Below are positions 47,803-64,000 of a stretch of 64,000 nt of DNA, one piece after another. How positions within the stretch are numbered: the stretch's first letter is position 1; each line of letters begins with the position of its first letter. Origin of the DNA: Candidatus Omnitrophota bacterium (lineage in GTDB: Bacteria > Omnitrophota > Gorgyraeia > Duberdicusellales > 4484-171); the NCBI GenBank assembly GCA_021735655.1, contig JAIPGM010000005.1, positions 45,461 through 109,460 of the forward strand, in the 5' to 3' direction. A model generated the notes under the pieces. The model did no database searches and was not told the DNA's origin. It saw only the letters and a list, made by a program, of their open reading frames with translations. The position numbers and the translations under genes are program-made.

Positions 47803-48132
47803 TTAAATCTTACAGCCACAATTTTTTCTTTTTAATATCTTTACCTGCTCTTTATAGGAATCTATAAATATACACTGCTTTTTTGAGCCGGTAGCTAATT
47901 TTCTATCAAGGTCGCTCTTATGCCTATATCCTCTATTGGCCATCTCCGCAACAAGTTTATTGTGCCGCAAATATAACGAAGCCAATTTACACTTCCATCT
48001 AAGCGTCTCCGGATGCCGAGAGTATCCTTTTTTATTCTTAGTTAGAATAGACCAAATAGCATGTAATTCCCTATGCTCACCTAGAAGATGATTGCGACAA
48101 AGTTTTTTTGGAGGTATATCCCAAATTCTCAT
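47803..48132 (-). CDS. Pyrimidine-dimer DNA glycosylase (T4 EndoV-like, Pyr_excise) family small protein
   Basis: N-terminus MRIWDIPPKKLCRNHLLGEHRELHAIW follows the MR.W..P..L....L..EHRE pattern of the family. Confidence 0.45.
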   Translation of the reverse strand: MRIWDIPPKKLCRNHLLGEHRELHAIWSILTKNKKGYSRHPETLRWKCKLASLYLRHNKLVAEMANRGYRHKSDLDRKLATGSKKQCIFIDSYKEQVKILKRKNCGCKI

Positions 48133-48261: not shown

Positions 48262-50010
48262 TTAAAAACTAACTTTGTAAGTAACCGATCCGCCAAGTTC
48301 GTAAAAGTCTTCTTTAAGCTGAGTTTCTAAATCAACCAAAAGAGTGGTATTTTTCTTGTTGAAGAATTCAAAACGGGAACCGACATTAAAGCTTGAGGGT
48401 GCCGGTCGGTAGCCTGAAGTTTCAAAAGAAGCCCCACCGCCCTCAAAACTGGCTAAAGACTGCTGTTTTTCATTCACCACACTGTAGAAATAACGAAAAC
48501 GAAGCTCGGGAGTGAACAGCATCTTCTCGCTCTCAAAAACCTTACTCAACCTAAGACCTCCGCCCAGCTGTAAAGTTTGGTAATTCTGAGACTCAACGCT
48601 GAGATTCAGCGCTCCGGCTCCAGTCTCAGTATAATCATCGAGCTCGAGATTAGTGTAGCTTAAAGCTAAAAGCGGAATGATCTCGAAATTCTTCTTTTTC
48701 AACTTATAGCCGCCTTCCAGGTAAGCTGAGAGCTGCTGGCCATCGTAATCAGCATTAGCCGTCCTTTCGATAGAACCGACAGTTACCTTTCTCGAATTAT
48801 TATATTCACTGTAGCCGTAAGTCAGCACTGCATCAAACAGATAAGGCTTATCCGGATGGCTATATTCTCCGTAAAGGCCGGTCTGATAACTTGTTATCCG
48901 AGTGCGCTCTTCGTTATCTTTTGACCTGATCTTACCTTCGCTAAACCCTTGGTCTATACCCAAGCGTAAAGAATTATTCAAAAACCCGTGGTCAAAGCCG
49001 ATAACATTACCCCAAAGCTTAGCCCGGTAACCCTTACTTGCACCACGCTCACCCTGCCGGGCATAGCCACCATAAGACTGAAACCAGATATCGTTATTAA
49101 AAGAATCCTCTAATGAGTCTTCCTCAAGGCTATCTTCCTCGATCTTTGAATCTTGTAAACGCAATACCGTGGTCCTGACAAATTTATCCAGGGAACCGTT
49201 TGAGGTATTGATTACTCCCCTGTTAGCAGAAAGGCCCATGTCGTTCTCGGCCGAAGCTACGCCACCACCAGATAAAGCTTCGAGAGTATTAAGAATCGTG
49301 GTCATGTCCGAAGAAGGATTGCTTATATTATCGAGAACCCGACCGACAGCAGCTGAATTAGAGCTGGAAGCCTGGCTTTCAAACCCAGAGGTTGACCGGT
49401 CAGCAGTTAAAACCAAGTTGCCTCCGGAATTTGACGCGCTAAATGACACCCGAGAGTTACTTGAGGTAACTGTAGTCGGAGCATTCCCTATTCCTGAACC
49501 ATTAGTATCGATAATAGTAAAGGTTGCATTTGACGGTATATAGATATCATTGCTAACTGTAACCGCCACTGTACTTGCTGTATTTACCACTGCTGCGGCA
49601 CCAGAAGTTATCCTGCCTGAGGTTGAAGGCGTATCAACGGTCAGGTTAAGGGTAGTCCCTGATCCTTGAGTATAAATGCCGGTACCGCCAAGAGTAAGAG
49701 TATTGGCTCCCAAGCCCAAACTGCCGGCATTATCTAAAGTAAGGTTTCCGGTAATTGTGCGGCTGCCAGTAAGATTTAAAGTTCCGCCGTCTCCTGCCGA
49801 ATCTACAGTAGTAGTTACGGCCGCCAGGTTATGCCCTAGAAAAAGTGTACCCTCCCCGGGCAGACGTCTGACTGCGGCTCGATTCGCTATGAATTCCGCA
49901 TAGAAGTCACCAGACCCAGCAAAAATCACGCCAGAATACGCCTGATTCCGACGGATTCCGAGGATCCGAAACAAAGCCCTGCCTTTGCCCTTGAAGCTCA
50001 AGGGTGCCAA
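48262..50010 (-). pseudogene. Autotransporter-like outer-membrane protein (Gly/Thr/Ser-rich passenger + C-terminal beta-barrel ending in F); N-terminus lacks a signal peptide, possibly 5'-truncated next to the IS
   Basis: C-terminal ~280 aa has alternating amphipathic beta strands and a terminal aromatic. Passenger has TLNLTG repeats. First 60 aa are non-hydrophobic and lie in the higher-GC DNA adjoining the transposase. Confidence 0.5.
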
Positions 50011-50139
50011 AATAGCCTTAAATACGCCTTAAAATAATGAGAATTTTTGAGGGGTTTTATGCCCAGAAAGGGCTATATGCTGTTTAGCGGGGTGCAGTTA
50101 ATATGCGACCGGTTTTTAAGGTAGGAAAAGTCGCCTAAC

Positions 50140-51295
50140 TTGTTGTAGAATGGACACTTACTCAAAACAACACTTTTTGCCATGAAAGGAGCTTTTGTAT
50201 CATGAACCACACCCAATCTTATACCATAAACGGCTGTATATTCCAAGAGTTTTTACTGCTTCTGGGCAGGGTTGTCCACAGTGACCTGATCCGGCAGATG
50301 GAGTACCTGAAAGTGGAGAATGAGGTTCTGCGGACCAAATGCCCGAAACGGATAACCACAAGCCCGGCCGAGAAACGTAAGCTCATCAAATACGGCCTTG
50401 CCTGCAGGGGCAGAATAAAAGGCATTATATCCATCGTAAGCTATTCTACCTTCAGGCGCTGGGTAAATGGCGATATCCGCAATAAATATAAGCCTTCCAA
50501 GCAAGGCACGCCCAGAAAGACCACACAGGAAATAATAGACCTTATAGTACGCCTTGCCCGGGAAAACTGCGACTGGGGCTATGGCCGGATAATGGGCGAG
50601 TTAAAGAAACTAAACATCATCAGACTGTCCCGGAATACCATAAAGGCCATAATGCGCCAGAACGGCCTTGATCCGGCACCAATAAGGGCCCATGACTCAT
50701 GGGATGCCTATATAAAGCGCCATTTCGAAACCTTATGGGCTTGTGACTTCTTTACCAAGACCATCTGGACAGCCATGGGGCCCAAGCTATTCCATGTATT
50801 ATTCTTCTTGAATATCAGAACCCGGAAGGTCCATATAGCCGGTATAACAGAAAAACCTAAAAAGGAATGGGTGATGGAAGCGTCAAAGACGGTATCGTTT
50901 CTATTCAAAGATAAGACCAAGAAGCTCCTTATTCGAGACGGTGATGCTAAATTCCCGAAAGAGTTCAATAGCCTTTTCAAAGACTGTAATACAAAAGTCA
51001 AAAAGATACCGCACCGGTCACCGAATCTTAACCCTTATGCCGAAGGCTTCGTGGGAACCATAAAAAGGGAATGCACGGATCACTTCTTCGTGTTCGGCGA
51101 ACGTCACTTCGAATACCTTGTCCGGGAATACGTCAAATACTATAATACCAAACGTCCGCATTCCGGCCGGGATAACCGGCCCCTTGAATATCATTCGGAG
51201 AAATCAACCGGCAAGCTCAAATGCGACTCACGCCTGGGTGGGATGATTAAGCATTATTATTGGGGGTAACGGAAGGTCACAGTAACTCATCCTCA
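50140..51295 (+). mobile_element. IS element (IS481/IS3-like, single DDE transposase ORF); ends approximate
   Basis: Transposase ORF with a local rise in GC relative to flanks. Terminal inverted repeats could not be defined by eye. Confidence 0.4.
50202..51269 (+). CDS. DDE transposase with N-terminal HTH/leucine-zipper and rve integrase core domain
   Basis: AAAGGAG RBS. rve-type motifs (..WACDFF.., RDGDAKF, NTKRPHSG). 355 aa. Codon usage and GC differ from neighbours. Confidence 0.8.
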   Translation: MNHTQSYTINGCIFQEFLLLLGRVVHSDLIRQMEYLKVENEVLRTKCPKRITTSPAEKRKLIKYGLACRGRIKGIISIVSYSTFRRWVNGDIRNKYKPSKQGTPRKTTQEIIDLIVRLARENCDWGYGRIMGELKKLNIIRLSRNTIKAIMRQNGLDPAPIRAHDSWDAYIKRHFETLWACDFFTKTIWTAMGPKLFHVLFFLNIRTRKVHIAGITEKPKKEWVMEASKTVSFLFKDKTKKLLIRDGDAKFPKEFNSLFKDCNTKVKKIPHRSPNLNPYAEGFVGTIKRECTDHFFVFGERHFEYLVREYVKYYNTKRPHSGRDNRPLEYHSEKSTGKLKCDSRLGGMIKHYYWG

Positions 51296-52101
51296 TTAAT
51301 GTAACGAAATATAGCAGTGTCATTCGAAGCTTTCATTGCGTATTCGTTTTCTAATCGATATCGTGCCACACACTGGAGAAAAGAACCAATGTCATGAAGA
51401 TGGCGAACTTGATCCCATGAATCCAACTTTAAATCAATGCCATAACCAGGCTTTCTAACAATATGAGCAATGCTGTGTCTAATCGAATCCTTCACGTATT
51501 CTCCGGCACTCACATTATTAGTATTTTGATCATGAAGAAAAATTCTATTGGCTGTAAAACGAGTTATAGTTTCACGCATATACTCTAACTCTCGAGGCCA
51601 ATTACCAACAAGATTATTAATATAAGCAACGGCCACACTTTCATCTGCGCTGGGATATACCAAACAATGCCAGAAAAAAAGAATTTGCAAATAAATATTA
51701 TTTGAGCTATTTGCTTCCCGATATAAACGGGCTAACTGGATTTGCTCCGGTGTACTCAAAAGAGATATTGTATAGAATTCGTCCATGGATTCACTGGCAT
51801 TTATCGACCTTTTGACGGAAAAACGAATGTTAACCTTGTTTAGTTTAGCGTCTACCTGCGAACTTATCCCGGAGTGCGTTATAACCCGAGCATTATTAGC
51901 AAAGGTAAAAGCGGAAAGAAATTCAGTCATCAGCTCAAACATCTTCGGTTGGCTACTGCCCTTGGGAATCTTGCATACCAGATCGTCAGTTTCATTGCTC
52001 TTATAATGAGGCACATATTTAAAATCAACATCCTTATAACGAAAATAATATACATCCTTGCGGAAAGCTATCGATATGTCTACTCCGATTGCATAAATCA
52101 T
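51277..52101 (-). CDS. Hypothetical protein, fourth gene of the SIR2 operon
   Basis: 274-aa ORF, 34 nt after the preceding gene, same strand. No recognised motif. Confidence 0.45.
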   Translation of the reverse strand: MIYAIGVDISIAFRKDVYYFRYKDVDFKYVPHYKSNETDDLVCKIPKGSSQPKMFELMTEFLSAFTFANNARVITHSGISSQVDAKLNKVNIRFSVKRSINASESMDEFYTISLLSTPEQIQLARLYREANSSNNIYLQILFFWHCLVYPSADESVAVAYINNLVGNWPRELEYMRETITRFTANRIFLHDQNTNNVSAGEYVKDSIRHSIAHIVRKPGYGIDLKLDSWDQVRHLHDIGSFLQCVARYRLENEYAMKASNDTAIFRYINEDELL

Positions 52102-52135
52102 ATTAATTCCATGATATAAAGGTTGTTTTCAAAGT

Positions 52136-53029
52136 TTATTGTTCGATAGAAGGCTTTTTGGCTTTAAAATAGTTCAGTAATAAGTAATAACGCAGTGCCA
52201 ATTTTTTATCTCCGGCTTCTTTTCTTTTTTTGTATTCTGATTCCACAAATTTAGATGCTTGGCCAAGTCCTTCTTCAAATTTCTTTGCCTGTTCTGAGTT
52301 TTCATTTATACTTTGTAAGAATTCCTTACCGAGATAATCTAATATTGACACACCATCTAAATCCCGGACTATCATTTTTAGACAACTCGTTGCCATAACC
52401 TTGCACAGCTCGACATCCTCATTGGTTTGTGCGGGTAATTGCGGATGCTTATTTGCTAACGTCGCCAAATAATTTAACAGTTCCCGCCCGATAACTATTC
52501 GTGGATATTCCGCAATTTTGCTTTCCAATGCATATGCCTTATATAAGGCAAGTCCATAAATTTCGCCATTAACCAATTCAGTTCCCAAGCCCACTTCTAT
52601 ACCGGCTCGAAATGCCTTTTTCATTGCCAAAGATAAAACCATCATGCCTCCACACGCTAACAGTGTGCCAAAGACACCATTAATTGCATGTGAGTGATAT
52701 TTATCCGTATGCAGACAAACGTAAGCTTGAATACAATCTGAAAAACGTTGATGCTTCAAATTGCTTTTTAGCATTTCTTTGAATTGCTCCATTTTTTCCG
52801 GAGGCACTTTAACCGAAGGCTCCCTTTCTTCTGTATAAGCATCAAAGAAATCCTGGAATCCATTGCGCAAAGTTTCGACGAACATCGCTGTTTGTTTATG
52901 GGCTTCTACTAAGCGTGGATGATTATCTTCAAGGGATTGGCCTTCAAGCCCTTGAAAAGCTTCTTTCTGGCCTAAAATATCGATAAAAGCTACAAGATAA
53001 TAATAGTAATTTATGTTATCTTTTGCCAT
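52136..53029 (-). CDS. Nucleotide-cyclase/GGDEF-like palm-domain protein (third gene of the SIR2 operon)
   Basis: YLVAFIDILGQKEAF resembles the metal-binding strand FaDIvGFT of class III cyclases. FRAGIEVGLGTELVNGEIYG..AYALES resembles RiGIhtGpvvaGviG..VNtAsRlES. The central segment ACGGMMVLSL occupies the position of a GGDEF-like turn. Confidence 0.45.
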   Translation of the reverse strand: MAKDNINYYYYLVAFIDILGQKEAFQGLEGQSLEDNHPRLVEAHKQTAMFVETLRNGFQDFFDAYTEEREPSVKVPPEKMEQFKEMLKSNLKHQRFSDCIQAYVCLHTDKYHSHAINGVFGTLLACGGMMVLSLAMKKAFRAGIEVGLGTELVNGEIYGLALYKAYALESKIAEYPRIVIGRELLNYLATLANKHPQLPAQTNEDVELCKVMATSCLKMIVRDLDGVSILDYLGKEFLQSINENSEQAKKFEEGLGQASKFVESEYKKRKEAGDKKLALRYYLLLNYFKAKKPSIEQ

Positions 53030-53045
53030 AATACGTCTCAGCCCA

Positions 53046-55826
53046 CTACTTGTTATATTTCTTATAAATTTCTGTTAAAAACTCAAACCCTGCTCTAGCA
53101 TATTTATCACAAATAGAATTTGCAATTTCATTTTTAAAACCAGCTAAATAAATTTTTTCAACAATAGATTGAATATTTTCTTGCTTATACCACGGAATAC
53201 TTTTTTCTATCATTATTAAAAATACATTCCCTACGTCTTTTGGGTTAACGTCTGCTAATTTATCGAAATACTCAAGTAAGAATGAACTATGGTAACGCTC
53301 TTCTACATATTTAATTGACTGCTTCAACCAATCCACCTGCTCTGTTTGTAATTGATCAAGAAATACCGCGAGTAGATTCAAATCGGAAAGGATGTCTTTG
53401 TTTTTGTCTTCTTTTCCTTTTGTTCTGTTAAAACAATACCGCCAAAATTCAAATATTCTTTCCTTTTGGTCGCAATCTAATTGCGCATCCCTATGAGCCC
53501 AAAAAAGACTGATCACCTCTTCAATATCATTTGGGTCCCATTTTTCTAAAATATATTTAAACAAACTGTCTTGGCCATCTATAGTCTCTTGCCCCCTTAA
53601 GTAGGATATTGTTACATTTTCTACAATTCGTCTTTTCGCTTGATCGTTCGAAAATTTTGTATCAAGCGCACGCCTTAGATGACCGTTATCTTTTAATAGA
53701 TTGTAGATAACAGCATAAACGGTATTGACATAAGAATATCCTTGCATAGCGCATCGCCAATGCTTTTCTTCAGCAGGAAAGATATTATTAATATTCGAAG
53801 TAACCCAATTTTTCTGCAAATAATACAAATTAGGCAAATAAGCACCAGATAGGCTTGAGAATTCGAAGTTTCCTTCCTTTGTTCTTTCAATCTCCCGACT
53901 AAATAGTGGCGCTACTGTCTTCCAGAAATCCTCTTTTTCTTTTATACCTTTATCAGGCAATTTTTCGAAATCACGGTACCGCCTAAGGACATAACTTTTA
54001 AAACTCTCTAGCACATGACCCTTTGTGGTATTAATCGCTTCGGTAAGCGCGTCTTCATCTTTACCACTTGCTGTTGATTCTTGTTTATCAAGCAGGGTCC
54101 GAATAATATTGTCTATTCTCTTATAATTATTCTCAGTAAGATTCAAATCGTCATTCTGAATCCCATTCTTGATCAAATCCGAGATAGCCGCAGGAATCCA
54201 ACTTTTCTTAGGTTCAAGGGGAAACTGACTCTCCTTCTCTTTCCCGTCCCACAATACATCATCGCAGACGATAGCTTGACAAAAGTCTAAAATCTTGTCC
54301 CAATTAATCTCTTTTTTATCCCGCGCAAGTTCTTCAAACGCCTCTATTACATAATACCAATATTCGTAACTAGACTTCTTGAACTCAATGAGACAATTTT
54401 CAAAAAATCCCTGTTTTAGCTTAATCGCTTCTTTTAAAGACTGGCCTGCTTCTCGTATCGCAGTTTCTCCAAAGCGGTTTTTACCTTTGAAGTTACCAAG
54501 GAAAGTAATAATTTCGTTAATGCTTCCCTGTGCCAACAATTCACTAGCTGAAAATAGAGACTCATCCCCCCATGATACAGGTCCAATATAACTTAAGAAT
54601 TCTGGATGTTCCGGCTTATAATCAATCCCTTTAAAATATTTCTCCTCTACATCATTCGGTATTGAATATCCCGAAACTTTAATAGCATATAGCCATCGCC
54701 TGCGAAGTATCGCATCCAATTTTTCCTTATCAACATCTTTTCTCCAGTCCCCGGACAACTGAACAACATCATTCATCAATGAATTCTGAAGATCTTGAGA
54801 AAATTGTTTAAAGTGGCGTGTTATCAGCTTATACAGTTCGTGGTGATAATTACTTTCGAGGAAAATAGTTTTACCGGTATCGCGAATGATTTTTTCACTA
54901 GTGGTTTTGTATTTATCAAACAACTGTCCTGTAATATACAATGAAAAACGTCTAATAATATGCTTGTCTGACCTAAAGCATGATTCAATAATAGTAGACG
55001 CTTCCTGTGAGGACGCATAGGCAAGAAACACATCTCTTAATCCAGAAACTAAAATATGTCGATATTCATCTCTGCTTATATTCTGTTCGCTATCTTCGAT
55101 TGCTGGACGCCACATATAAGAATATGCGTCATCCTTTTCCGTCACAATATGCTCAATTTTCTTCTTAAGAATTTCGACAATTTCGGCACCATATTTTTCG
55201 CCCAAATGCGTAGCATTGATCTTAAATAATTCCTGCAAACTATGGGCACCAAGGCTATGCCGATTTTCAATCCTGATGAAGTCAAGAATGATTTCTATAA
55301 GTCGGCTAACTTTTTGTAACTCCTCTGGTTCTTTCAATAAGTTTGGCAAAAGGGTTTTGCCAATCTCCAGCATTACCATTGAGGCATCAAACTTACTGTC
55401 AAGCCAATCAGCAATAAGCTCAATATCTTTTATTTCCACGACATCTGACGGCAAGAGTGCCATGATTTTAACAAAAGACTGCCACGTACGCCAATTATCT
55501 GCTTTTTTGGTCTTATCATCGGGACGAGTCACCTCACGAATAATTGACATTAACTTTCGGACATGCTCTTTATTTCCAGATTTCGAGCATTCTTTGGATA
55601 CCTTTTCTAAATATGTCAAAGCAGGCCAATATGGAATTGAGAAGAAACCTTTGTTTTTTTCCGACTCTACTGGAGAAGGATTATTTGTTGAACCAAAATA
55701 ACCATGATCTTTAAGCAAAGTAAGATATTCAACCTTCGACAATTCATTAAAGACCTGTGCTCGGTATTCAGCCCCTTTTGCCATGTAATCTAAAAGACTT
55801 TTTTGCTCTGGAGTTATATTCGTCAT
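53046..55826 (-). CDS. Large (926 aa) all-alpha-helical repeat protein, second gene of the SIR2 operon; no NTPase motifs
   Basis: No Walker A/B. Helix-rich composition throughout. Start overlaps the SIR2 stop (ATGA). Confidence 0.5.
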   Translation of the reverse strand: MTNITPEQKSLLDYMAKGAEYRAQVFNELSKVEYLTLLKDHGYFGSTNNPSPVESEKNKGFFSIPYWPALTYLEKVSKECSKSGNKEHVRKLMSIIREVTRPDDKTKKADNWRTWQSFVKIMALLPSDVVEIKDIELIADWLDSKFDASMVMLEIGKTLLPNLLKEPEELQKVSRLIEIILDFIRIENRHSLGAHSLQELFKINATHLGEKYGAEIVEILKKKIEHIVTEKDDAYSYMWRPAIEDSEQNISRDEYRHILVSGLRDVFLAYASSQEASTIIESCFRSDKHIIRRFSLYITGQLFDKYKTTSEKIIRDTGKTIFLESNYHHELYKLITRHFKQFSQDLQNSLMNDVVQLSGDWRKDVDKEKLDAILRRRWLYAIKVSGYSIPNDVEEKYFKGIDYKPEHPEFLSYIGPVSWGDESLFSASELLAQGSINEIITFLGNFKGKNRFGETAIREAGQSLKEAIKLKQGFFENCLIEFKKSSYEYWYYVIEAFEELARDKKEINWDKILDFCQAIVCDDVLWDGKEKESQFPLEPKKSWIPAAISDLIKNGIQNDDLNLTENNYKRIDNIIRTLLDKQESTASGKDEDALTEAINTTKGHVLESFKSYVLRRYRDFEKLPDKGIKEKEDFWKTVAPLFSREIERTKEGNFEFSSLSGAYLPNLYYLQKNWVTSNINNIFPAEEKHWRCAMQGYSYVNTVYAVIYNLLKDNGHLRRALDTKFSNDQAKRRIVENVTISYLRGQETIDGQDSLFKYILEKWDPNDIEEVISLFWAHRDAQLDCDQKERIFEFWRYCFNRTKGKEDKNKDILSDLNLLAVFLDQLQTEQVDWLKQSIKYVEERYHSSFLLEYFDKLADVNPKDVGNVFLIMIEKSIPWYKQENIQSIVEKIYLAGFKNEIANSICDKYARAGFEFLTEIYKKYNK

Positions 55827-56812
55827 TTGTTTAATAACCGCCTTATGACATCTTTTTCTTCTTCAAAATTAGGCTTATTGACTTTAGCTTTTAGAACAGC
55901 TGCCCATTTAATAATGATCTCTTCCAAATGAACGTGTCCTTTTTTGTCGATGTTATAGTCAATCAATTTTATGCCACAATGTCTTTCAAAATATCCCTTA
56001 AGATGCTTATAGGCAGCGTTATCCCTGCTCATACGTGGATATAGCCAAAAATGCCTTGGTTCTTCAACCCTCGGGGAATTGCTTTTTCTAACAATGAACT
56101 CCAATATTTCTTCTTCTTCCAGTCCATATCCAATAAACAAGACAATCTTCCGCGAAAACAAATCATTTAAAAAATCTATAACAAATCTATTCATATAATG
56201 ATCCATATAATCTCTGGTGGTCATAATCATGGTTTCTTTGCTTTTTACGCTTCCATGAAGATGAATAACCGAGCCTGGCTGATCTAGTCGCGCAGATGTT
56301 AAATCCTCTTTCCTGAAAAATACAGAAGTAGGAGAGGTAATTCCAGAGTTTCCCAGAGAACTGTCATCACCTTTTGAACTTAATATTTTATTATCAGCGA
56401 GCTTATCAAGGCAATCATCATAATTAGTCGTTACAAAAACAGTCCCTATCGAATACAAAGCATCGTATATCGCCGTTTTTACCGCTATTTCTTTATCCTG
56501 AAAAATTAACCTTCCATAATCATAATCGATGCCTTTTGCTTTGTAGTTATCAAAAAAAATAGAGAGTTGAATCTTGGGGTTTAAGGCTAAGAGAGAAGAT
56601 TTTTCTGAATATTCGATGTGCCCTTCTTTATAGAGAATGTCAATCGCCCGTCTTCCAAGCTCAACCCATGAAGGGTACCCCAATAATCTAGATACTCCAT
56701 TGCCGACAAACAAAATTAATTTGCCGTTTTGAGCTGCGTCGATAATAGACGAATGATCTTCTATGTTGGGAATAATTCTTGACGCAGGATTTTTATCTTC
56801 TATCGTCATCAA
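55823..56812 (-). CDS. Stand-alone SIR2_2-family (defence-type sirtuin-like NADase) domain protein
   Basis: Motifs in the canonical order: KLILFVGNGVSR (GAGxS equivalent), VFVTTNYDDCLD, VIHLHGSV (catalytic His), IVLFIGYGLEE. 329 aa. Confidence 0.75.
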   Translation of the reverse strand: MMTIEDKNPASRIIPNIEDHSSIIDAAQNGKLILFVGNGVSRLLGYPSWVELGRRAIDILYKEGHIEYSEKSSLLALNPKIQLSIFFDNYKAKGIDYDYGRLIFQDKEIAVKTAIYDALYSIGTVFVTTNYDDCLDKLADNKILSSKGDDSSLGNSGITSPTSVFFRKEDLTSARLDQPGSVIHLHGSVKSKETMIMTTRDYMDHYMNRFVIDFLNDLFSRKIVLFIGYGLEEEEILEFIVRKSNSPRVEEPRHFWLYPRMSRDNAAYKHLKGYFERHCGIKLIDYNIDKKGHVHLEEIIIKWAAVLKAKVNKPNFEEEKDVIRRLLNK

Positions 56813-57157
56813 TAATACCCCCTAATATACGTTTCTAAATCTACCTCTCCGTCCAATACCTCTGCTTGATCCAAAACCTTTTTGACGGGTACAGTATATT
56901 CACCGGTCGGTTAGTTCCCCACTACCTGCTAACCCTTCTACCAACCTAATTTACCAACCCATGATTCTTACTGGTTAGTTATCTGGGCAGTTTTCAGGGT
57001 AGTCTTTTTAGGATATTCAAAATATTTGTTACTCATACATGACCTTTATAATATTACTTTCATAAAAAATGCCATAACCTGAATTCTATCGGGCTACGGC
57101 AAATCGCAATGGCAGGTCTTTTAGTCTAAAACTCTCGAGCAACCTTCGCCCATCAAA

Positions 57158-57931
57158 TTAGCACTTTAAACATTTTTCTTTTTTAGTCGACTGCTGTTTT
57201 GAATGTATTCGTTCCCGCGCCATCCGACAATACTCTGGAGAAATATCAATGCCGATATAATTTCGTTTAAGGTCCCTTGAAACAACGGCTGTCGTTCCCG
57301 AGCCCATAAAAGGATCAAGTACAATTTTAGCATTGGTTGATGATACAATTCTTTGAATCAAAGATACAGGAAATGGAGCAGGGTGCCCATTTTTCATTTC
57401 CTGCGTAAATTCCCAAACATCACCGTAGGCATTCGCTTTTTTTGCCAATTTGAAATCCGGTTTAGCTATCAAGTATATAACCTCATAAGTAGGCAAGAAA
57501 TACCCTGCGTTAAAATTAATTCCACCTTTTCTTTTCCAAACAATAATCTGGCGCACAGGAAATTTACTGACAATGTCATGCCGGTCTTGAAGCAAGCCAT
57601 TTTGTACCCGCCATTTATGATTATAAAAAATTGCTCCGTCATTTTTTATTAATCTATACATTTCATCGAGACATTTAATTTGCCATGACACATATTCTTC
57701 ATGAGGCATACAGTCATCATGATGACTGTATCCGTTAATCAAAGCGGCTCTCGACCATTTACCACCGCGACCATCTTTCATACCGTTTCCTGTAGAATTC
57801 TTAAGATTGTAAGGCGGAGATGTCACAGCCAAATCAATCGATTCGTCCGGCATTGCTTTCATTACTTCTAAACAATCACCGCAAATGATCTTATTCAGAT
57901 AATCCTTAGGAAATTTTAGTTTAGCACTCAT
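57158..57931 (-). CDS. DNA amino-methyltransferase, beta-class (motif IV SPPY N-terminal, motif I FMGSGTT C-terminal); N4-cytosine or N6-adenine
   Basis: LAVTSPPYNL near the N-terminus. DPFMGSGTTAVVS near the C-terminus. Confidence 0.8.
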   Translation of the reverse strand: MSAKLKFPKDYLNKIICGDCLEVMKAMPDESIDLAVTSPPYNLKNSTGNGMKDGRGGKWSRAALINGYSHHDDCMPHEEYVSWQIKCLDEMYRLIKNDGAIFYNHKWRVQNGLLQDRHDIVSKFPVRQIIVWKRKGGINFNAGYFLPTYEVIYLIAKPDFKLAKKANAYGDVWEFTQEMKNGHPAPFPVSLIQRIVSSTNAKIVLDPFMGSGTTAVVSRDLKRNYIGIDISPEYCRMARERIHSKQQSTKKEKCLKC

Positions 57932-57955
57932 TTCATTCTTTCGATAACAGGTTAA

Positions 57956-58762
57956 TCAAAACACCTCTTTAACATCATCATATAGATCCGACCACACGCC
58001 TTGCTTGAGCCGAAATTTTGTTCCGTGGTTATGTCCCGTTCGGGCGTCAAAATCAATCAACAAACTTCCTGCCTCTACACAGCACAAGAATTTCTCAAAT
58101 GAAAAACCAGATAGAACAGAAAGGTGTTGATAGCAAAAATACTCATGCCCGTCGTCAATTTTGGCCTCAGCGATAACGTAAAAACAATTCTTTATTTTTT
58201 CGCCAATCGCATACTTCAAATCTTCAAAGCCCCAATAAGGCTCCGGTGAAATCGCTCCCAAGCCAGCTCTTTTTTTAACAGAAGATAGCCATGCCTTGAT
58301 CTCAGGGTCTGCCATATCAGCCTTCTTTGAGTCAAATACGAACTTCAACTTTTTAGCAGTACGATCAACGACTACTGTAAATCCGCGATTTGTAAAACTA
58401 CTAGAGCTGGTGGTAGACCGAAAACTCATTTCAGTTTTGGGGTATTTAAACCCAGCCTGTTTATGTGGCCAACCATATTTTGGTAAAAGAATATTGCTTA
58501 CAATCCGAGCCGCTGTTGGCGATGGTTCAATGTGCTTTAATGTTATAAGCGAAGAAGAATGCGCTCGCTGTCCTTTAAGCTCCCATTCTCGAGCATTAGG
58601 AATCGGCAGATTGTTTTCTGTAATGCCAAGAAGAACTTCAAGCGTGTTGCCAACAGCGCCATCATTTCGAGTGTCTCGTGTTTGTTTTACGCTCTTATGC
58701 CACCCTTTCGATGCGATAGCTTTAATTTCCTTGATTAACTCATCCTTTGAAAATAATTTCAT
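57956..58762 (-). CDS. Type II restriction endonuclease, MvaI/BcnI-like
   Basis: Sandwiched between two MTase genes with 24- and 13-nt spacers. N-terminal pattern MKLFSKDEL..DGAVGNTLEVLLGI.ENN..EWELKG matches my recollection of this family. A candidate ExK (VIAEAK) follows acidic residues. Confidence 0.5.
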   Translation of the reverse strand: MKLFSKDELIKEIKAIASKGWHKSVKQTRDTRNDGAVGNTLEVLLGITENNLPIPNAREWELKGQRAHSSSLITLKHIEPSPTAARIVSNILLPKYGWPHKQAGFKYPKTEMSFRSTTSSSSFTNRGFTVVVDRTAKKLKFVFDSKKADMADPEIKAWLSSVKKRAGLGAISPEPYWGFEDLKYAIGEKIKNCFYVIAEAKIDDGHEYFCYQHLSVLSGFSFEKFLCCVEAGSLLIDFDARTGHNHGTKFRLKQGVWSDLYDDVKEVF

Positions 58763-58775
58763 AATCTCCCTTTCA

Positions 58776-59768
58776 CTAATACCTTTTTTGGGGCGGCTTC
58801 CAGAAATCTAAAAGATATTCAAAAGTTACACCCATTGTTATATAATTGCTTGGCCAGCCAAAAATACCAATGCCATTGACCACATTGGTACGATCCCATA
58901 TTATGACATTTCGTAATTCATAGCCTCTCTTACGGAGTTCCTCAATCAACGAAACGTGAATTGTAATGCGCCGGTTTTCCCACCACATATCCGGAACATT
59001 AATAACGCAATGTGCTTTCTCTCTAAGCAGAGGAAGTAACCCTTCAAAAATATCTCCCATTGCCGTCGTATAGGAATCAATAGCCATTGTGCCTAGATCA
59101 CGCACATCTTGAGAATATTGCTCAACTTTACCCAATTGCTTGTTGTTCCTGTCGCGTCGAGATTTGTTTTGACGGGATCTATTTAAAAGATTTGCGTAGG
59201 GCGGAGATGTCCAGATCAAACTTACAGTATTGGGGGAGAGATATTCTGAAATATTTCTGGCGTCATCCTGAATGGCCATCTGAGCACATGCATTAAACAG
59301 GTTAGGATTCTTTTGGAGCCGCTTAACACATAACTCAATGTATTTTTTTTGGAGATCGAACCCAACGGCATTTCGGTTCAAATCAGTTGCGGCAATAAGT
59401 GATGTTCCACTTCCAACAAACGGGTCAATAACCAATTGTCCCTGATGTGTGAATAATTCGATGACTTTTTTTGCGAGGGATATTGGAAAAGTTGCAGGAT
59501 GAACAGATTTATCTCTTATATCGCGAGTTTCATAAAAAAACTGCCAAACTCCTATTTGGGATTTAAGCCAGTCCTTGGGGCCCATGCAATTAATATGTGT
59601 ATGGCCACAATTACATAAACGCTCGTGCGCCATACCTAGCTTTGTGCCATATAAAGAATCGCCTTCAAAAACGGCCAAGGCTTTTTGCTCTGTTTTACTC
59701 TTATCATTGTGACCCTGATCAATAGATCTTTTGTCAACCGCGCTATGACCAAAACTTTGATTTCCCAT
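58776..59768 (-). CDS. Second DNA amino-methyltransferase (motif I DPFVGSGTS precedes motif IV SPPY)
   Basis: DPFVGSGTSLIAATDL at ~aa 113. IWTSPPYANL at ~aa 187. 330 aa. Confidence 0.8.
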   Translation of the reverse strand: MGNQSFGHSAVDKRSIDQGHNDKSKTEQKALAVFEGDSLYGTKLGMAHERLCNCGHTHINCMGPKDWLKSQIGVWQFFYETRDIRDKSVHPATFPISLAKKVIELFTHQGQLVIDPFVGSGTSLIAATDLNRNAVGFDLQKKYIELCVKRLQKNPNLFNACAQMAIQDDARNISEYLSPNTVSLIWTSPPYANLLNRSRQNKSRRDRNNKQLGKVEQYSQDVRDLGTMAIDSYTTAMGDIFEGLLPLLREKAHCVINVPDMWWENRRITIHVSLIEELRKRGYELRNVIIWDRTNVVNGIGIFGWPSNYITMGVTFEYLLDFWKPPQKRY

Positions 59769-59825
59769 TTCTATCTCTTTTCCCCTTCCCTCAATCGATT
59801 ACTTCGTTTAGGTAAAATAAAAAAA

Positions 59826-60446
59826 TTAGATATTTCGAATCGTAGTAACTACAATACCCTGCACCTGAAAATCTCTAGTAACCACTATTGGCTTATGTTG
59901 TTTATTGCTCGAACACGGTTTCAAAACGACCGTATCTCCTGATGAATTATATTGTTTAACTGTAACCTCGTTGTCAACTAAAGCAATGATGACATCTCCT
60001 GTGTTTGCGGTTTCCTGTTTGCGCACGAGTAGGAAGTCACCATCTTCAATACCTTTCTGATTCATTGAGTCGCCTTTGGCTCTGACAAGAAAATATTTAT
60101 GCGGAAGTTGGGCTAATTTTGTTGAAACCGGAAACCACGATTCGATATTTTCTTCAGCTAAAATAGGAATACCACAGGCAACAGTACCGACAAGAGGCAC
60201 GCTGATTGTCTGAACATTATCACTGTTATTAATATCCATAACCAATCGCAAGGCCCCTGAAGGATTTCTACGCAACACTCCTTTAGAAATTAATTTGTTA
60301 ATCAATAGGGCAACAGAGCGAGGTGAACGATATCCTAAAGTCCCCATTAAGTCTCTTAATGAAGGGCATTTGCCAAAATTGACAAGAGCATTTCGGATGG
60401 CTTTAATGACAATCGCTTCTTTATCGGAAATCATTATATTGCTCAT
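59826..60446 (-). CDS. LexA/CI-like repressor with S24 peptidase domain (ORF-track extent 59826..60527; start more likely at 60446 or 60434)
   Basis: N-terminal HTH (LVNFGKCPSLRDLMGTLGYRSPRSVALLINKLISKG). VACG cleavage-site analogue. S24 Ser/Lys region (AKGDSMNQ..). A perfect palindrome lies at the start. Confidence 0.7.
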   Translation of the reverse strand: MSNIMISDKEAIVIKAIRNALVNFGKCPSLRDLMGTLGYRSPRSVALLINKLISKGVLRRNPSGALRLVMDINNSDNVQTISVPLVGTVACGIPILAEENIESWFPVSTKLAQLPHKYFLVRAKGDSMNQKGIEDGDFLLVRKQETANTGDVIIALVDNEVTVKQYNSSGDTVVLKPCSSNKQHKPIVVTRDFQVQGIVVTTIRNI

Positions 60447-60463
60447 GTATACAATTGTATACA
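60446..60463. promoter_or_regulatory. Perfect 18-bp palindrome TGTATACAATTGTATACA at the repressor start (SOS-box-like operator candidate)
   Basis: Exact palindrome with the half-site pattern TGTATAC..GTATACA, reminiscent of CTGT-N8-ACAG LexA boxes. It overlaps or abuts the repressor start codon. Confidence 0.5.
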
Positions 60464-61085
60464 ACATGGATAACTTTGTCAATGATTTATTTTCTTGATG
60501 ATGAAAAGGCAACGCTGATAATAACATATGTGTTTTTCAGAACATCAAAACTTGTTCAGGTTTTACTGACTTTCAAAGCCACGGCTTAACAGGACAAAAC
60601 TACATTTATACTGACATTCGCATGTCAATGATGACAATTTTGCCCTGTTTTGACCCTGTTTTGAGCCATTTTGGGCCCTTTTTACTGACATATTGGCATT
60701 GGAATGTCAGGGTGTACCGGCCGTTTTGCCCTCAAATCGTGAAATAATTCCAATCATAACATCAATAACTACAATATATTACGCATAAATAGTCTTTTCC
60801 AAGATCATGATGCGAATGACAAAATTGTCCCTGACATCGTTTTTTGAAGTCAAAATCACTGACAAACTGCGCCTCGGCTGACCCTCGGCCCAGGCCCGCC
60901 CGGGAAGGACCCACAATAATAATGCGTGCGGAGGAGGGTGGCAAGGAGGCCAATCTCCACCCTCTGCCAAGGCGCATTTACTCCATTAGAAAGCCGTCAT
61001 TTCTAACAGAGTTTACCTGACAAAACCTTTGCGATGGAACAGCGTCCGAGATCATCGCTTGGGCTTCTCCGCATTATTTGACTTG

Positions 61086-61769
61086 TTACTCCGTTACCGC
61101 TTCCGAAACATCCACAGCAAGGGAAGACTGCACACTGAAACGTTTCGTAAGTTTGTCTATTTCTTCCTCGATATCGAAGCTCCGCACCCAGCTCTCCTTT
61201 CGCTCGATATCCTTTTCGATATCCGCAACCGTCGGCTTACTTCTATCGGCCAAGGCTCTGTCTTTGGCCTCATGAAATATGTCATACGGTTCACTTCCAA
61301 GCGCCGGACTGAACGATGGATATTCCTCAAGACGTCTTCGTGCGGTTTCCGGATGACCATATATTGCGATAGCCATAGCGTAAAGCCTGCCTTTTTCACG
61401 CCAGAGCTCAAGCTCCACCTTCAAACGCTTGCTGTTAAGCACTCTGCGCTCTGTCACGATATTGCGTGATTCTTCCTCATGCAGGGCTGTCAGTGTTTCA
61501 GAAAGCTTTGCCTTTAGCTTTTCGATAGTTTCGTCAACGATCTCGAGATTTATCTTGGCCTCATCGAAACGCTTGTCCGCTTGCTTTACCGCATCCGGAC
61601 TTATTTTCTCGTCGCATATTGCCCGGCTTCTGATTTCTTTTACCTTTTCCTTCGCCTCGTCGTGTTCCTTCTGATATTGCCTTTGCTTTTTCTCAAGCGC
61701 TACTATCTGTTCGACAATCTCATCCGGCGTGCTTTTCTTATTCAGAATATTCAGAAAATTAAGTTTCAT
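61086..61769 (-). CDS. Coiled-coil hypothetical protein
   Basis: 227-aa ORF, highly charged with heptad-like patterns. Preferred over the shorter overlapping plus-strand ORF. Confidence 0.45.
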   Translation of the reverse strand: MKLNFLNILNKKSTPDEIVEQIVALEKKQRQYQKEHDEAKEKVKEIRSRAICDEKISPDAVKQADKRFDEAKINLEIVDETIEKLKAKLSETLTALHEEESRNIVTERRVLNSKRLKVELELWREKGRLYAMAIAIYGHPETARRRLEEYPSFSPALGSEPYDIFHEAKDRALADRSKPTVADIEKDIERKESWVRSFDIEEEIDKLTKRFSVQSSLAVDVSEAVTE

Positions 61770-61775
61770 GATTTT

Positions 61776-62195
61776 TTATCTCCTTTCGATTTTGTTAGGT
61801 GCTGTAATAGATAAGGCTTCTTCCAGGCTACAACCATTCGATTCCTGATAACTTCTGGCACGTTCGATATGCTCCAACTGCTCGGCAATTAAAGCGCTGT
61901 CGGAATCAACCTTTTTATCCGGCGCTGTCCGGCTTAAAGCCTCGGTTAACGTACACTCGAATTTATCCCTGTACTCATAGGCCCGCTTGAGATGTTCAAG
62001 CCGGATATCGCCGGTAGAGACCATTCCCGGATGTTTCTTTGCTGTCACCCGTAAAGCCTCGGCAAGAGTGCATTTATTGCGCTTCATGTAGATATTGGCG
62101 TCGATTAAATGCACAAGTTGTTTTTCTTCCTCCGAGCCCGGGACATAACGCTTGATCATCTGACTGATCGTATTCAATACATGTAATTGGTTCAT
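61776..62195 (-). CDS. Small protein with three ~40-aa internal repeats (C(T/S)L(A/T/E)EAL..TA)
   Basis: Repeats RNKCTLAEALRVTAKKHP / KFECTLTEALSRTAPDKK / ESNGCSLEEALSITAPNK. Confidence 0.45.
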   Translation of the reverse strand: MNQLHVLNTISQMIKRYVPGSEEEKQLVHLIDANIYMKRNKCTLAEALRVTAKKHPGMVSTGDIRLEHLKRAYEYRDKFECTLTEALSRTAPDKKVDSDSALIAEQLEHIERARSYQESNGCSLEEALSITAPNKIERR

Positions 62196-62282
62196 TTTTA
62201 GTCTCCTCCTGTTTTGGTTTTCGTTACTATGAAATTACCCATGGCTTTTTATCTACACCCTCATAGAATCACCTCCCCCTGT

Positions 62283-62549
62283 GATGACCGTGAACGTTGT
62301 GAACGTAAATTCCTGTCTTTTCTAATTACCTCTTTTTGCGTAGTTTCTTGACCTTTTACCCTTATTTTTCTAAACCTTAAAAAGCAGGAAATTACGTTCA
62401 AGATCTTCACAATCTTCATAACTTGTTATGGCTTCATGCGTTACCCCATGAATATGGCTGTGACCGTGGAAGGCTGATATTCACAACGTTCACTCGAATC
62501 AGCCCGGCGTATCTTCGCAACGTTCACAGACGTTCACACCTTCGTTCAC
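62283..62549. repeat. Iteron-like array: two GTGAACG repeats (62290-62305) and four inverse-oriented CGTTCAC copies (62485-62549) bracketing an AT-rich spacer; candidate origin
   Basis: Direct reading gives GTGAACGTTGTGAACG, and then CACAACGTTCAC, GCAACGTTCAC, GACGTTCAC, TTCGTTCAC. TGACCGTG is also duplicated at both ends. Confidence 0.55.
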
Positions 62550-63992
62550 ACTGTTTTCAAAAAACGTATCGCCTTTATTCTTGCGTAAAATAAATAGCTT
62601 CCGGCCCGTTCCGGATTCCCGCTTTTTGCTACGTACAATATCAATTCCTATACCACGCATAACCGGCGCTATCCTCATAAGCTCCGATGATAGAGCCTTG
62701 GGATTATCGGGAATGCGTTTATCGAACCCGGACTCCGGCTTAATATACTCAAGCAAGGTAGTGGCTGAACCGCACCACTGTCCGCCGTTGGATTCCACAA
62801 GATAGGCTAACTTCTGCGTAATAGGGTTCTCTTCGGCAGTATCTTCCCATTTATACTCAACCGACTCCTGATACTTTTTGAAAAACTCATCCTGTGAATA
62901 TCCCAGTGTCTCGGAAAGGGCCGCGCCCCACCTGGCAAAGTCTGACATTCTAAACTTTTCATGGCCGGTTACTTTATTAACGATGGCCATAGCATTGGAT
63001 ATCGCCGAGAAGAAACCGCCCAATATGCCCGGAAGCGATGCCTGCCATTCATCGGCAATCTGCTTTTCGGGCCTTGTTTCTTTTAAAGGCGGGATATCGA
63101 AGATGATGGATCTATCCAGTAAATCCGGCCTGCATACGGAATTGCCTATACCGTTTAATACAAAGCACCGGCGGTATGTCCGTATGAATACCTCGTCATT
63201 CGTGTAAAGCGAGCGTTTCATGTCACCTTCACCGGTTACGGCCCGGCAGAGGAAATCACTGAACCATTCGGAAATCTTCGAAAGGTTATCGAAAGTATTT
63301 ATCCAGTGTTTATCTGCTATCATTTGAGCCTGATCCAAATCCTTTGGGCTTGAGATGAGCATAACCTTGGAAGGGTCGCATAGGCTTTTAATCAACCGGG
63401 AATTATTGGATTTTCCCGTGCCTTGCTCGCCGACTTGAACAGGTATAACGTGGGGAATATCTGGAATAAAAAACGACGCTAACATCGTCATGAAAAGACA
63501 GTAATCATCCTTGTTGATATTACAGAATTCCAGAAACCTCTTCGGATCATGTCCTTTAACAGGTATAACCTGCGTATCCTGATGATTGTATCTTTTGAAT
63601 ACCGGCGGAAGGTAGACAACCTGCCAGCCTTTCTTATCTATAAAGACTCCCTTCCAATCGGGTGTAGTAAGATCATAATAAATGCTGTCTTTATACCAGC
63701 CGACACGGTTATAAAGTTCGAATTTGGGCGAATCTTCGCATTTTGCCTCTGCCTGAATCCGTGCCTGTTTTAATGCTTCGTTACATGGCGGGCTTTTGTA
63801 TTTATAGCGGTAGCGCTTGGCAAGCCAGTTCCTGAAGCGGGAGCTGTTGGTCTGGCATACCTCCAGATGATTATCGATAGGGAGCACTATAAAGGAGTTG
63901 CCTTGCTGATCACGATAATAGTCTGTTATTTCTTTTTCGCAGTATCGTGTAAGTATTTCACCCTGGGTGGGATGCGCCTTGCGATAATTCAC
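62499..63992 (-). CDS. VirE/P4-primase C-terminal-like P-loop ATPase (replication protein of a mobile element)
   Basis: Walker A VGEQGTGKSNNSRLI. A hydrophobic stretch followed by D (Walker B-like). 497 aa. Next to the iterons. Confidence 0.55.
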   Translation of the reverse strand: MNYRKAHPTQGEILTRYCEKEITDYYRDQQGNSFIVLPIDNHLEVCQTNSSRFRNWLAKRYRYKYKSPPCNEALKQARIQAEAKCEDSPKFELYNRVGWYKDSIYYDLTTPDWKGVFIDKKGWQVVYLPPVFKRYNHQDTQVIPVKGHDPKRFLEFCNINKDDYCLFMTMLASFFIPDIPHVIPVQVGEQGTGKSNNSRLIKSLCDPSKVMLISSPKDLDQAQMIADKHWINTFDNLSKISEWFSDFLCRAVTGEGDMKRSLYTNDEVFIRTYRRCFVLNGIGNSVCRPDLLDRSIIFDIPPLKETRPEKQIADEWQASLPGILGGFFSAISNAMAIVNKVTGHEKFRMSDFARWGAALSETLGYSQDEFFKKYQESVEYKWEDTAEENPITQKLAYLVESNGGQWCGSATTLLEYIKPESGFDKRIPDNPKALSSELMRIAPVMRGIGIDIVRSKKRESGTGRKLFILRKNKGDTFFENSVNEGVNVCERCEDTPG

Positions 63993-64000
63993 CTGGCAAT

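Follow-up and report, generated by a model that had tools for sequence, protein, structure and literature searches.

An S24-headed defence cargo slot in a probable integrative mobile element of Candidatus Omnitrophota

Introduction

What kind of locus gathers restriction-modification, sirtuin (SIR2) and other immune genes behind a single repressor gene at the edge of an otherwise ordinary chromosomal stretch? The question is raised by a 64,000-nt stretch of DNA (hereafter the window) from a Candidatus Omnitrophota bacterium (GCA_021735655.1, contig JAIPGM010000005.1, positions 45,461-109,460 of the forward strand), in whose last 16 kb an earlier reading of the letters alone, the original prediction, had placed an accessory or defence island, as opposed to the housekeeping content of the first 48 kb. 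Both halves of that proposal are borne out: family scans assign ordinary chromosomal genes to the first 48 kb, and the remainder holds mostly defence genes, a backbone that recurs in relatives, and a cargo that varies downstream of a gene for an S24 repressor. What does not stand is the notion of a single 16-kb block, as the accessory region is modular rather than uniform, being made up of three modules with separate histories: the backbone, the cargo slot and the flank that bears the transposase. We conclude that the part from about 50.2 to 64.0 kb, together with DNA beyond the window, probably forms one arm of an integrative mobile element, which belongs to a family widespread in Candidatus Omnitrophota and carries a defence cargo slot headed by the S24 gene. 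This conclusion is built on gene identities, homology breakpoints, cargo variability, motif conservation and folds, from which mobility, regulation and biochemical activities are predicted.

Omnitrophota are a phylum of ultra-small, largely uncultured bacteria, for which, to our knowledge, almost nothing has been described on mobile defence islands. The kind of element is already known, pipolins being one example: like pipolins and other defence-carrying integrative elements (PMC11551731; PMC10201445), it combines a conserved replication-recombination module with a variable defence reservoir exchanged among elements. It differs from pipolins in having a PrimPol-helicase instead of a primer-independent PolB, in the large serine recombinase of its relatives, in its Omnitrophota host, and in a slot that has a LexA-like repressor at its head and an rve transposase at its far end. 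Limited literature searches found no description of this element family, nor of the two-gene form of the DSR1 defence system followed by a cyclase-fold gene that is described below.

Results

A backbone shared with related elements

Proteins of the window were scanned against Pfam, NCBIfam, PADLOC and PHROGs and compared by sequence with the PDB, and Rfam was used for RNA. The conserved backbone occupies positions 59,832-64,000 and comprises part of a PrimPol-helicase gene, a putative iteron origin, two small genes, a non-coding region and the S24 repressor gene; positions 59832-63975 align with three related loci (L016, L017 and L018) at 75-89% DNA identity. The gene order in relatives runs from a large serine recombinase (- strand) through a gene for 71 amino acids (aa; - strand), a DUF5659 gene, the PrimPol-helicase, the iterons, a 139-aa gene present in some, a 227-aa gene and the non-coding region to S24. 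The recombinase, 71-aa and DUF5659 genes are known from these relatives, and in the present locus they would lie beyond the end of the window. L017 contains the full backbone, and its serine recombinase is 90% identical to that of L012, which adjoins tRNA-Asn; large serine recombinases are likewise present in L009, L035 and L040. The last of these, an IMG/VR locus, shares the recombinase-DUF5659-PrimPol-helicase core and is free of structural genes within 10 kb. Because the recombinase and the second element end are outside the window, mobility of this copy is predicted from its relatives only.

The gene at the window end (62499-64000, - strand) has a Walker A motif, GEQGTGKS, and an open reading frame (ORF) that is still open at the last base, so that the gene continues past 64000. 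Most of its 559 homologues, which come mostly from Omnitrophota, are about 780 aa long with NrS-1 HBD or Prim-Pol domains, and the ORF is 75-99% identical to the C-terminal 500 aa of these proteins. On the basis of the domains of its homologues and the Walker A motif, we assign it as the helicase/ATPase part of a PrimPol-helicase, a replication protein of mobile elements in which an N-terminal AEP/PrimPol domain is joined to a C-terminal P-loop helicase/ATPase (PMC5862659). The earlier description as a VirE/primase-like ATPase holds insofar as the protein is a helicase/ATPase of this family, but there is no VirE match in Pfam. Indeed, no significant match was obtained in Pfam, NCBIfam or PHROGs, or by sequence in the PDB, and the single PADLOC match is borderline, below significance. 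Kinship with the D5-type primase of L009 was considered and rejected, as the two have no similarity.

Next to the helicase gene, at 62280-62560, two opposed clusters of GTGAACGT/ACGTTCAC iterons surround a spacer of about 180 bp with a lower GC content (0.363), and one of the clusters overlaps the 3' end of the helicase gene. The anticipated iteron array is thereby confirmed: there are five exact copies of ACGTTCAC, all inside 62290-62537, versus 0.61 expected in the whole window. A matching arrangement is found 3' of the helicase gene in four relatives (L012, L016, L017 and L040). This is the anatomy of a classic iteron origin, and the segment is a putative replication origin. Of the two small backbone genes, that for the 227-aa protein (61086-61769, - strand) stands at the same position in L016, L017, L018 and L029 (53-95% aa identity); the protein has a single weak, sub-threshold Pfam match and may form a coiled coil. 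The 139-aa gene (61776-62195, - strand) is facultative, being found in L018 (90%) and L029 (77%) and absent from L016 and L017. It holds internal repeats of about 117 nt, and a 137-aa ORF stands in its place in L040, the likeness being one of position only.

A cargo slot between two conserved genes

For the comparison of cargo, related loci were found via the S24 protein. Similarity to the DNA of L016, L017 and L018 breaks off at 59832-59837, only a few bases from where the S24 reading frame stops. It is picked up again precisely at the transposase stop codon, where 50745-51269 matches the end of L017 (90.5% DNA and 97% aa identity). In both the window and L017 the transposase gene is convergent with the last cargo gene, with a gap of 6-7 nt. 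These two breaks therefore delimit a slot of about 8.6 kb (51270-59831) bracketed by two conserved genes, S24 and the rve transposase.

The slot content differs from locus to locus. In the window it consists of a BcnI/MvaI-type methylase-endonuclease-methylase system, a split DSR1, a class-III-cyclase-fold protein and a HEPN protein. In L016 and L017, S24 is followed by Dam, R.DpnII, a methylase, a 181-aa protein, SIR2 and a 1344-aa AAA protein; in L018 by methylases, a 590-aa SIR2 protein, and Bro-N and SEC-C proteins; in L021-23 and L027 by a 525-aa methylase and R.TdeIII; and in L024 by HNH-SAVED and SMODS cyclase genes, which make up a CBASS (cyclic-oligonucleotide-based signalling) system, and by GmrSD. 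Single cassettes have boundaries of the same kind. The pair of SIR2 and DSR1 sensor genes is 82.5% identical to L009 exactly over 53045-56830, and its neighbours are different on both sides (type I restriction-modification and HNH genes in L009). In L032, the R-M1 genes of the restriction-modification system are 84% identical to the window, the DSR1 and cyclase-fold genes only 68%. Judged from these alignments, defence cassettes appear to be exchanged whole, at gene boundaries, within the slot, which suggests a simple rule for the mining of new immune genes: to search between the S24 repressor and the transposase.

A LexA-like repressor at the head of the cargo

The predicted product of the S24 gene (59826-60446, - strand; ORF to 60527) is a LexA-like self-cleaving repressor with Pfam Peptidase_S24 and LexA_DNA_bind domains. 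It aligns over its full length to LexA structures (residues 9-198 of 202 of E. coli LexA, E 3e-27) and has the motifs VACG (with Cys-Gly, as in UmuD), GDSM, and a Lys in VTVKQ, whose match to the catalytic positions of LexA and UmuD was judged by eye. Upstream of 60446 the sole two differences from L016 are both non-synonymous in the long ORF, versus mostly synonymous differences downstream. Because of this pattern, the true start is probably the ATG at 60446 (206 aa), presumably on a leaderless transcript.

The promoter in front of this ATG (TTGACA-17-TACAAT, 60446-60482, - strand) matches the sigma-70 consensus at 11 of 12 positions, and its site at 60482-60454 is the best promoter match in the 16 kb. 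A perfect 18-bp palindrome, TGTATACAATTGTATACA, unique in the window, lies at 60446-60463, overlaps the -10 box and ends at the ATG start codon, in agreement with the S24 repressor and operator palindrome proposed originally. Each of 10 related loci has a single copy of the palindrome (TGTATAC-N4-GTATRYA), always at a distance of 17 nt upstream of the S24 ATG, even where S24 identity is 57-64%. The distance from the S24 stop codon to the start of the first cargo gene is 2-57 nt.

From this arrangement, and by analogy with known repressors, a mode of control can be proposed. By binding the lone palindrome, which lies over the -10 box and start codon of its own gene, the S24 repressor would limit the synthesis of a leaderless mRNA that extends through the cargo genes. 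After DNA damage or infection, RecA-stimulated self-cleavage at Cys-Gly would raise cargo expression. We regard such an autoregulated S24-cargo operon, derepressed by RecA-stimulated cleavage, as about evenly balanced between right and wrong, and favour it over a role of S24 as master repressor of excision. A LexA-type repressor together with a conserved operator at the head of an immune operon suggests SOS-linked defence expression.

Two groups of known systems are comparable. In lambda cI-rexAB, and with SetR in integrative and conjugative elements (ICEs) of the SXT family, an S24 repressor is expressed from an autoregulated promoter (leaderless in lambda), together with exclusion or defence genes that follow it in the transcript. 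The present locus would share the S24 repressor with its autoregulated promoter and downstream defence genes; unlike lambda and SXT, it is without phage or conjugation genes, has a single identified operator, and shows no divergent promoter of the lytic type.

A second possibility is that S24 serves as a CI/SetR-like master maintenance repressor of the element, holding excision and replication off until the SOS response, with the cargo merely downstream, in the manner of rexAB behind lambda cI. Its LexA/CI-type architecture and cleavage residues, its conservation as part of the backbone in four elements, the resemblance of the predicted leaderless start to lambda P_RM and the precedent of SetR of SXT all fit such a role. 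Yet each element has one palindrome, at the repressor's own promoter, and elsewhere in the 17.3-kb L017 there is none, the recombinase and helicase regions included. Moreover, S24 homologues stay linked to downstream defence genes despite a different upstream backbone. A FAD-dependent protein (like PDB 3nlc) is encoded to the left of the S24-plus-defence module in L019 (1737-3275), and a TrwB-like coupling protein in L024 (2272-3621); given these other left neighbours, the S24-plus-cargo unit is not tied to the present backbone alone. We consider the master repressor a tentative alternative, clearly behind the autoregulated S24-cargo operon.

The autoregulated operon resembles CapH/CapP, CapW/BrxR, CapK/CapS and RptR, DNA-damage-responsive regulators encoded upstream of immune operons (bioRxiv 10.1101/2022.04.27.489752; PMC11662680; PMC13373217; PMC12255303), in that the repressor gene immediately precedes defence operons of various kinds in the same orientation, the operator lies at the repressor's promoter, and an intrinsic response to DNA damage is predicted. 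It differs from these in that a single LexA-type polypeptide unites a winged-helix DNA-binding domain with an S24 self-cleaving domain. A limited literature search found no description of a LexA-type protein as regulator of an immune operon; conceivably, the LexA-like protein stands for a novel class of regulators that respond to DNA damage and head such operons.

Is the element mobile?

Several observations weigh against an integrative element with an S24-controlled slot. First, the recombinase and the second element end are outside the window, and neither att sites nor an empty site were seen. Second, the loss of synteny that accompanies the island is weak evidence by itself. The order polyprenyl synthase-UbiA-flavoprotein-DoxX is common with Omnitrophota loci as far as position 47785, where the suggested synteny comparison places the end of the conserved order, at DoxX, and to the right of it nothing is common to these syntenic loci; however, the nearest genomes among 185,579 species representatives, which are metagenome-assembled genomes of Candidatus Omnitrophota and Planctomycetota, are so distant (only 38-46% protein identity for the boundary gene) that this break cannot carry much. 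Third, the transposase may be a plain IS481-like insertion sequence (IS) at the element end, with no flanking repeats. Fourth, public assemblies break near the join of chromosome and element (see below) and leave it without independent confirmation. Fifth, the GC content of the cargo is host-like. Finally, S24 homologues of lower similarity (54-64% identity) stand next to different genes on their left, and the leaderless transcript, its extension into the cargo and the cleavage dependent on RecA are all predictions.

The absence of att direct repeats at the island ends, which had been proposed as a check, is of a different kind. A search of 47.7-64.0 kb gave no long direct repeats, and the window contains no credible partial copy of the tRNA-Asn flank of L012. 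Serine recombinases need only a 2-bp core, so that such repeats are not expected and the search is uninformative for an element of this type.

Core genes have a GC content of 0.385±0.018 and a GC3 of 0.345±0.035. Atypical GC is limited to the autotransporter gene at the left junction (0.459), the transposase gene (0.468, GC3 0.573), as anticipated for the latter, and 61.0-64.0 kb, where the 227-aa, 139-aa and helicase genes have a GC of about 0.46 and a GC3 of about 0.50. All genes from the 274-aa ORF through S24 are host-like (GC 0.36-0.41, GC3 0.33-0.37). The contrast in composition that had been predicted is thus a property of the island's flanks, and the defence genes do not share it.

Host-like cargo would be expected of a fixed chromosomal defence island, one that is no longer mobile, whose backbone has decayed with loss of the PrimPol domain from a 529-aa helicase, and whose cargo turns over by homologous recombination at the flanks after DNA uptake. 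Breakpoints exactly at gene ends are likewise what flank-guided recombination predicts, and the nearest helicase homologues (P0066 at 99% identity, P0067 and P0070; 86-99% overall) are 529-aa forms without the PrimPol N-terminus. Against decay, the backbone proteins are well conserved, and the identities of the transposase (97% aa versus 90.5% DNA) and of the helicase in relatives (87-91% aa) argue for purifying selection; promoter, palindrome and iterons are intact. A fixed island is, in our estimation, doubtful.

Less probable still is a phage satellite or cryptic prophage remnant similar to phage-inducible chromosomal islands (PICIs), in which the replication module would be helper-induced and packaged and the defence genes an accessory load. 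The order of integrase, repressor, primase-helicase, iteron origin and accessory genes, and a length of about 16 kb in L017, recall the PICI layout, one relative lies in an IMG/VR viral contig, and the cargo of L018 includes a Bro-N protein. However, genes for capsid, small terminase subunit or packaging interference were not found in any examined locus, PHROGs gave no structural matches, and in L017 the operator occurs only at the repressor's own promoter and not at replication or excision genes.

Logan contigs of the sequencing run SRR12088349 are 100% identical to the window and break at 49907, 51158 and 60572. Such breaks point to transposase and backbone copies that are repeated or variant in that sample, and would be expected if several related elements coexist there. 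That the locus is an assembly chimera of chromosome, cargo contig and backbone, joined across repeats of co-existing elements or IS copies, is very unlikely: these breaks fall exactly at the transposase and the conserved backbone, but contig L001 spans S24 through 119 nt of the transposase gene, the adjacency of S24 and backbone is repeated in L016, L017, L018 and L029 and that of cargo and transposase in L017, and the sole join without independent support is that of autotransporter and transposase.

A restriction-modification cassette and a split DSR1

The cargo begins with a gene for a circularly permuted N4/N6 DNA methyltransferase, M2 (58776-59768, - strand; PADLOC MTase_II, E 4.6e-140), in which the Pfam N6_N4_Mtase profile matches in two stretches and the C-terminal part of the profile falls on residues 71-147. 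It is followed by an MvaI/BcnI-family type II endonuclease gene (57956-58762, - strand; Pfam MvaI_BcnI, E 1.2e-62) and by that for a second N4/N6 DNA methyltransferase, M1 (57158-57931, - strand; Pfam N6_N4_Mtase, E 3.5e-43; PADLOC MTase_II, E 2.2e-125). An endonuclease between two N4/N6 methylases is the two-methylase type II system that had been announced. The BcnI system also has two N4-type methylases, one of them circularly permuted. Endonucleases of the MvaI/BcnI family are monomeric and cut pseudopalindromic CCSGG or CCWGG (PMC3203586; PMC5449598). The cassette shares with BcnI and MvaI systems the endonuclease family and the adjacent methylases; unlike them, its endonuclease is only distantly similar to R.MvaI (E 4e-14) and R.BcnI (E 4e-9) in the PDB. 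Neither CCSGG (91 sites versus 56.6 expected) nor CCWGG (71 sites versus 69) is avoided in the window, so that site counts give no signal for specificity.

Four tightly packed co-directional genes follow at 51277-56812 (- strand), and one of them, as foreseen under the name of a SIR2 operon, encodes a SIR2 protein. This 329-aa protein (55823-56809; Pfam SIR2_2, E 3.2e-20) corresponds to positions 9-283 of the PADLOC Dsr1 profile (E 4.3e-55), has the GNG, TTNYD and HLHG motifs of NAD binding and Asn/His catalysis, and is the predicted NADase-type effector of a split DSR1. Its stop codon overlaps, as ATGA, the start of a gene for 926 aa (53046-55826) that corresponds to the C-terminal, sensor region of DSR1 (PADLOC Dsr1 positions 310-1225 of 1227, E 5.7e-165). 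DSR1 (defence-associated sirtuin 1; Gao 2020) is described as a single protein that transiently depletes NAD+ in infection (Garb et al., bioRxiv 10.1101/2021.12.14.472415). The present pair resembles it in its SIR2 domain and large C-terminal region, which together match the Dsr1 profile almost end to end; unlike DSR1 it is made of two genes and followed by a cyclase-fold gene, and relatives also have TIR in place of SIR2. Depletion of NAD+ upon infection would be the expected outcome for the split DSR1.

The sensor is 47% identical to residues 305-1227 of a fused DSR1 homologue (P0021), the SIR2 part only 26%. Homologues of the sensor occur as stand-alone proteins of about 930 aa (25-93% identity), as SIR2 fusions of about 1227 aa and as TIR fusions of about 1095 aa, so that the DSR1 sensor appears as a portable module, used with a separate SIR2, a fused SIR2 or a TIR. 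In four of four contexts (the window, L009, L010 and L032) the stand-alone sensor has an overlapping upstream SIR2 gene. As the two-gene layout recurs in the last three, the split is neither a pseudogene nor a frameshift artefact but a settled arrangement in which effectors are exchanged. The TIR-fused sensors are P0008-P0013, P0035, P0040 and P0048, in which the effector is swapped on the same sensor.

A cyclase-fold protein and a HEPN protein

Behind the sensor gene lies a gene for 297 aa (52136-53029, - strand) whose product has the palm-like fold of class III nucleotidyl cyclases with two metal-binding Asp. It has no significant match in Pfam, NCBIfam or PADLOC and one weak match in PHROGs, to a family of no assigned function. 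Its 156 homologues are mainly from Omnitrophota, and four residues are invariant: D17 (in FIDxLGQ, at the end of beta1), D98 (in FSDC, at a hairpin turn), R141 and R177. The positions of D17 and D98 fit the two-metal site of the cyclase fold.

Three contexts chosen via this protein place its gene directly after a DSR1-like system, which is split in L032, fused in L033 and composed of SIR2 and a 1077-aa protein in L035; the gap between the two genes in Omnitrophota is 6-20 nt. By comparison, two DSR1 loci found via the sensor (L009 and L010) are without it, and in Elusimicrobia a 40%-identical homologue (L037, 8001-8900) is located in a type I hsdR-hsdS-X-hsdM operon with no SIR2 nearby. Taken together, these contexts identify the cyclase-fold protein as a defence-island gene product whose link to SIR2 systems is strong and not obligatory, an uncatalogued companion that travels with SIR2/DSR1-type systems. 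It is unlike Pycsar (pyrimidine cyclase defence): it has no sequence-level match to the cyclase models of PADLOC or Pfam, its downstream partner varies among relatives with no cyclic-nucleotide-binding domain recognised, and its usual upstream neighbour is a DSR1-like system.

The last cargo gene (51277-52101, - strand) encodes a 274-aa protein, full length relative to 149 representatives, with a Pfam MauJ match (E 1.5e-8). In its structure model (pLDDT 94.1) a beta-rich N-terminal domain is followed by a helical, HEPN-like C-terminal domain, and the motif IRHSIAH (Rx4H; R208-x4-H213) is conserved. From the model and this motif, the protein is a predicted RNase-type effector. A fixed pairing of cyclase-fold and HEPN proteins was rejected, as the gene downstream of the cyclase-fold gene differs among the window, L032, L033, L035 and L037. 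Two longer versions of the cyclase-fold protein (P0277 and P0288, about 510 aa) have a C-terminal extension of about 210 aa with LRDSEIH or LRDNDVH, which are Rx4H-like; no similarity of this extension to the 274-aa HEPN family is detectable. It is conceivable, if speculative, that the cyclase-fold protein is an unrecognised signalling component of SIR2/DSR1-type immunity and acts in a DSR1-cyclase-HEPN circuit that would convert infection sensing via a cyclic-nucleotide signal into activation of a second effector.

The conserved non-coding region

Between the S24 ORF and the 227-aa gene there are 558 nt without a credible gene. The conserved non-coding region (60483-61085, - strand) has 83% mean column identity across five elements and includes a GC-rich segment with G runs at about 60855-60980. 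It holds six exact TGTCAG/CTGACA sites versus 0.2 expected (p about 8e-8), or eight sites when TGTCAT variants are counted. The region had been described as GC-rich and structured. Strong conservation and the GC-rich segment are plain to see, but structure is much less so: the fold is modestly better than that of shuffled sequences (z -2.65), no covariation in the region is convincing and the consensus structure is unstable, and Rfam has no match in 47-64 kb at E<=0.1. A structured RNA in the GC-rich region was rejected as a candidate, since RNAalifold structures shift with the sequence subset and the differences in L029 break the outer stem and do not compensate. Protein-binding DNA is a more economical explanation for the region than RNA structure.

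A 71-codon ORF (60762-60977) is probably not coding, as indels in L016 break its frame. Likewise, a 17-nt inverted repeat (94%) of 51251-51267 with 60909-60925 was rejected as an element boundary because it is not conserved in L016, L017 and L018 and matches chance expectation. Within 60860-60915 (- strand), five GGG runs in about 40 nt, G-quadruplex-like, are followed by GGCGCAGTTTGTCAGTGAT; this G-run tract is kept in L012 (12585-12649), an element without an S24 gene, where it precedes the gene for a 223-aa HTH protein.

The left junction and its chromosomal setting

The transposase gene (50202-51269, + strand) is of the rve type, with a DDE transposase of IS481/IS3-like character (Pfam rve_3, E 6e-10, and HTH_32; NCBIfam IS3 and IS481). 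All of its Pfam and NCBIfam matches are below the curated cut-offs (IS3, 82.7 bits versus 160; IS481, 73.2 bits versus 224), and an exact-protein lookup gave no match. No convincing terminal inverted repeats were found (best, 17 nt at 76%, 50023-50039 with 51252-51268), nor direct repeats flanking the gene. Its orientation contradicts the earlier statement that the whole island lies on one strand; as most core genes are on the - strand too, co-orientation is not special to the island.

To the left of the transposase is a 5'-truncated autotransporter gene (48262-49907, - strand; ORF to 50010). It encodes a complete beta-barrel (Pfam Autotransporter positions 1-253 of 255, E 1.8e-54) and a short passenger, and, as had been noticed, no signal peptide: judged by eye, the N-terminus is charged and non-hydrophobic. 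The first 35 or so codons of the ORF are not autotransporter-like and run into unrelated sequence flanking the transposase, and the independent Logan contig L002 is identical as far as 49907 and stops there. Across the transposase, the neighbouring sequence is not the missing 5' part of the autotransporter gene but the 3' end, intact, of the gene for the 274-aa protein. The autotransporter gene looks like one truncated at the junction rather than cargo, and the truncation accounts for the absence of the signal peptide.

Further left, a pyrimidine-dimer DNA glycosylase gene (47803-48132, - strand; Pfam Pyr_excise, E 1.8e-27) is the first gene past the end of core synteny and is absent from the syntenic Omnitrophota loci; because its GC (0.361) is host-like, it is probably chromosomal and outside the element. 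The window contains no tRNA genes. Products encoded in the first 48 kb include a histidine kinase, a beta-CASP RNase, an asparagine synthase, a DEAD helicase, GH130 phosphorylases, MATE and RND efflux pumps, and carotenoid/isoprenoid enzymes. The beta-CASP/metallo-beta-lactamase RNase (6145-7551, - strand) has as its top NCBIfam match the Cas14 model of type VII CRISPR (E 1.5e-113), at 380 bits versus a cut-off of 800 bits, and is probably a housekeeping aCPSF1/RNase J-like enzyme. Finally, 17558-19474 and 19506-21359 (- strand) form a tandem pair encoding proteins of about 620 aa each, whose C-terminal halves match GH130 beta-1,2-mannobiose phosphorylase models.

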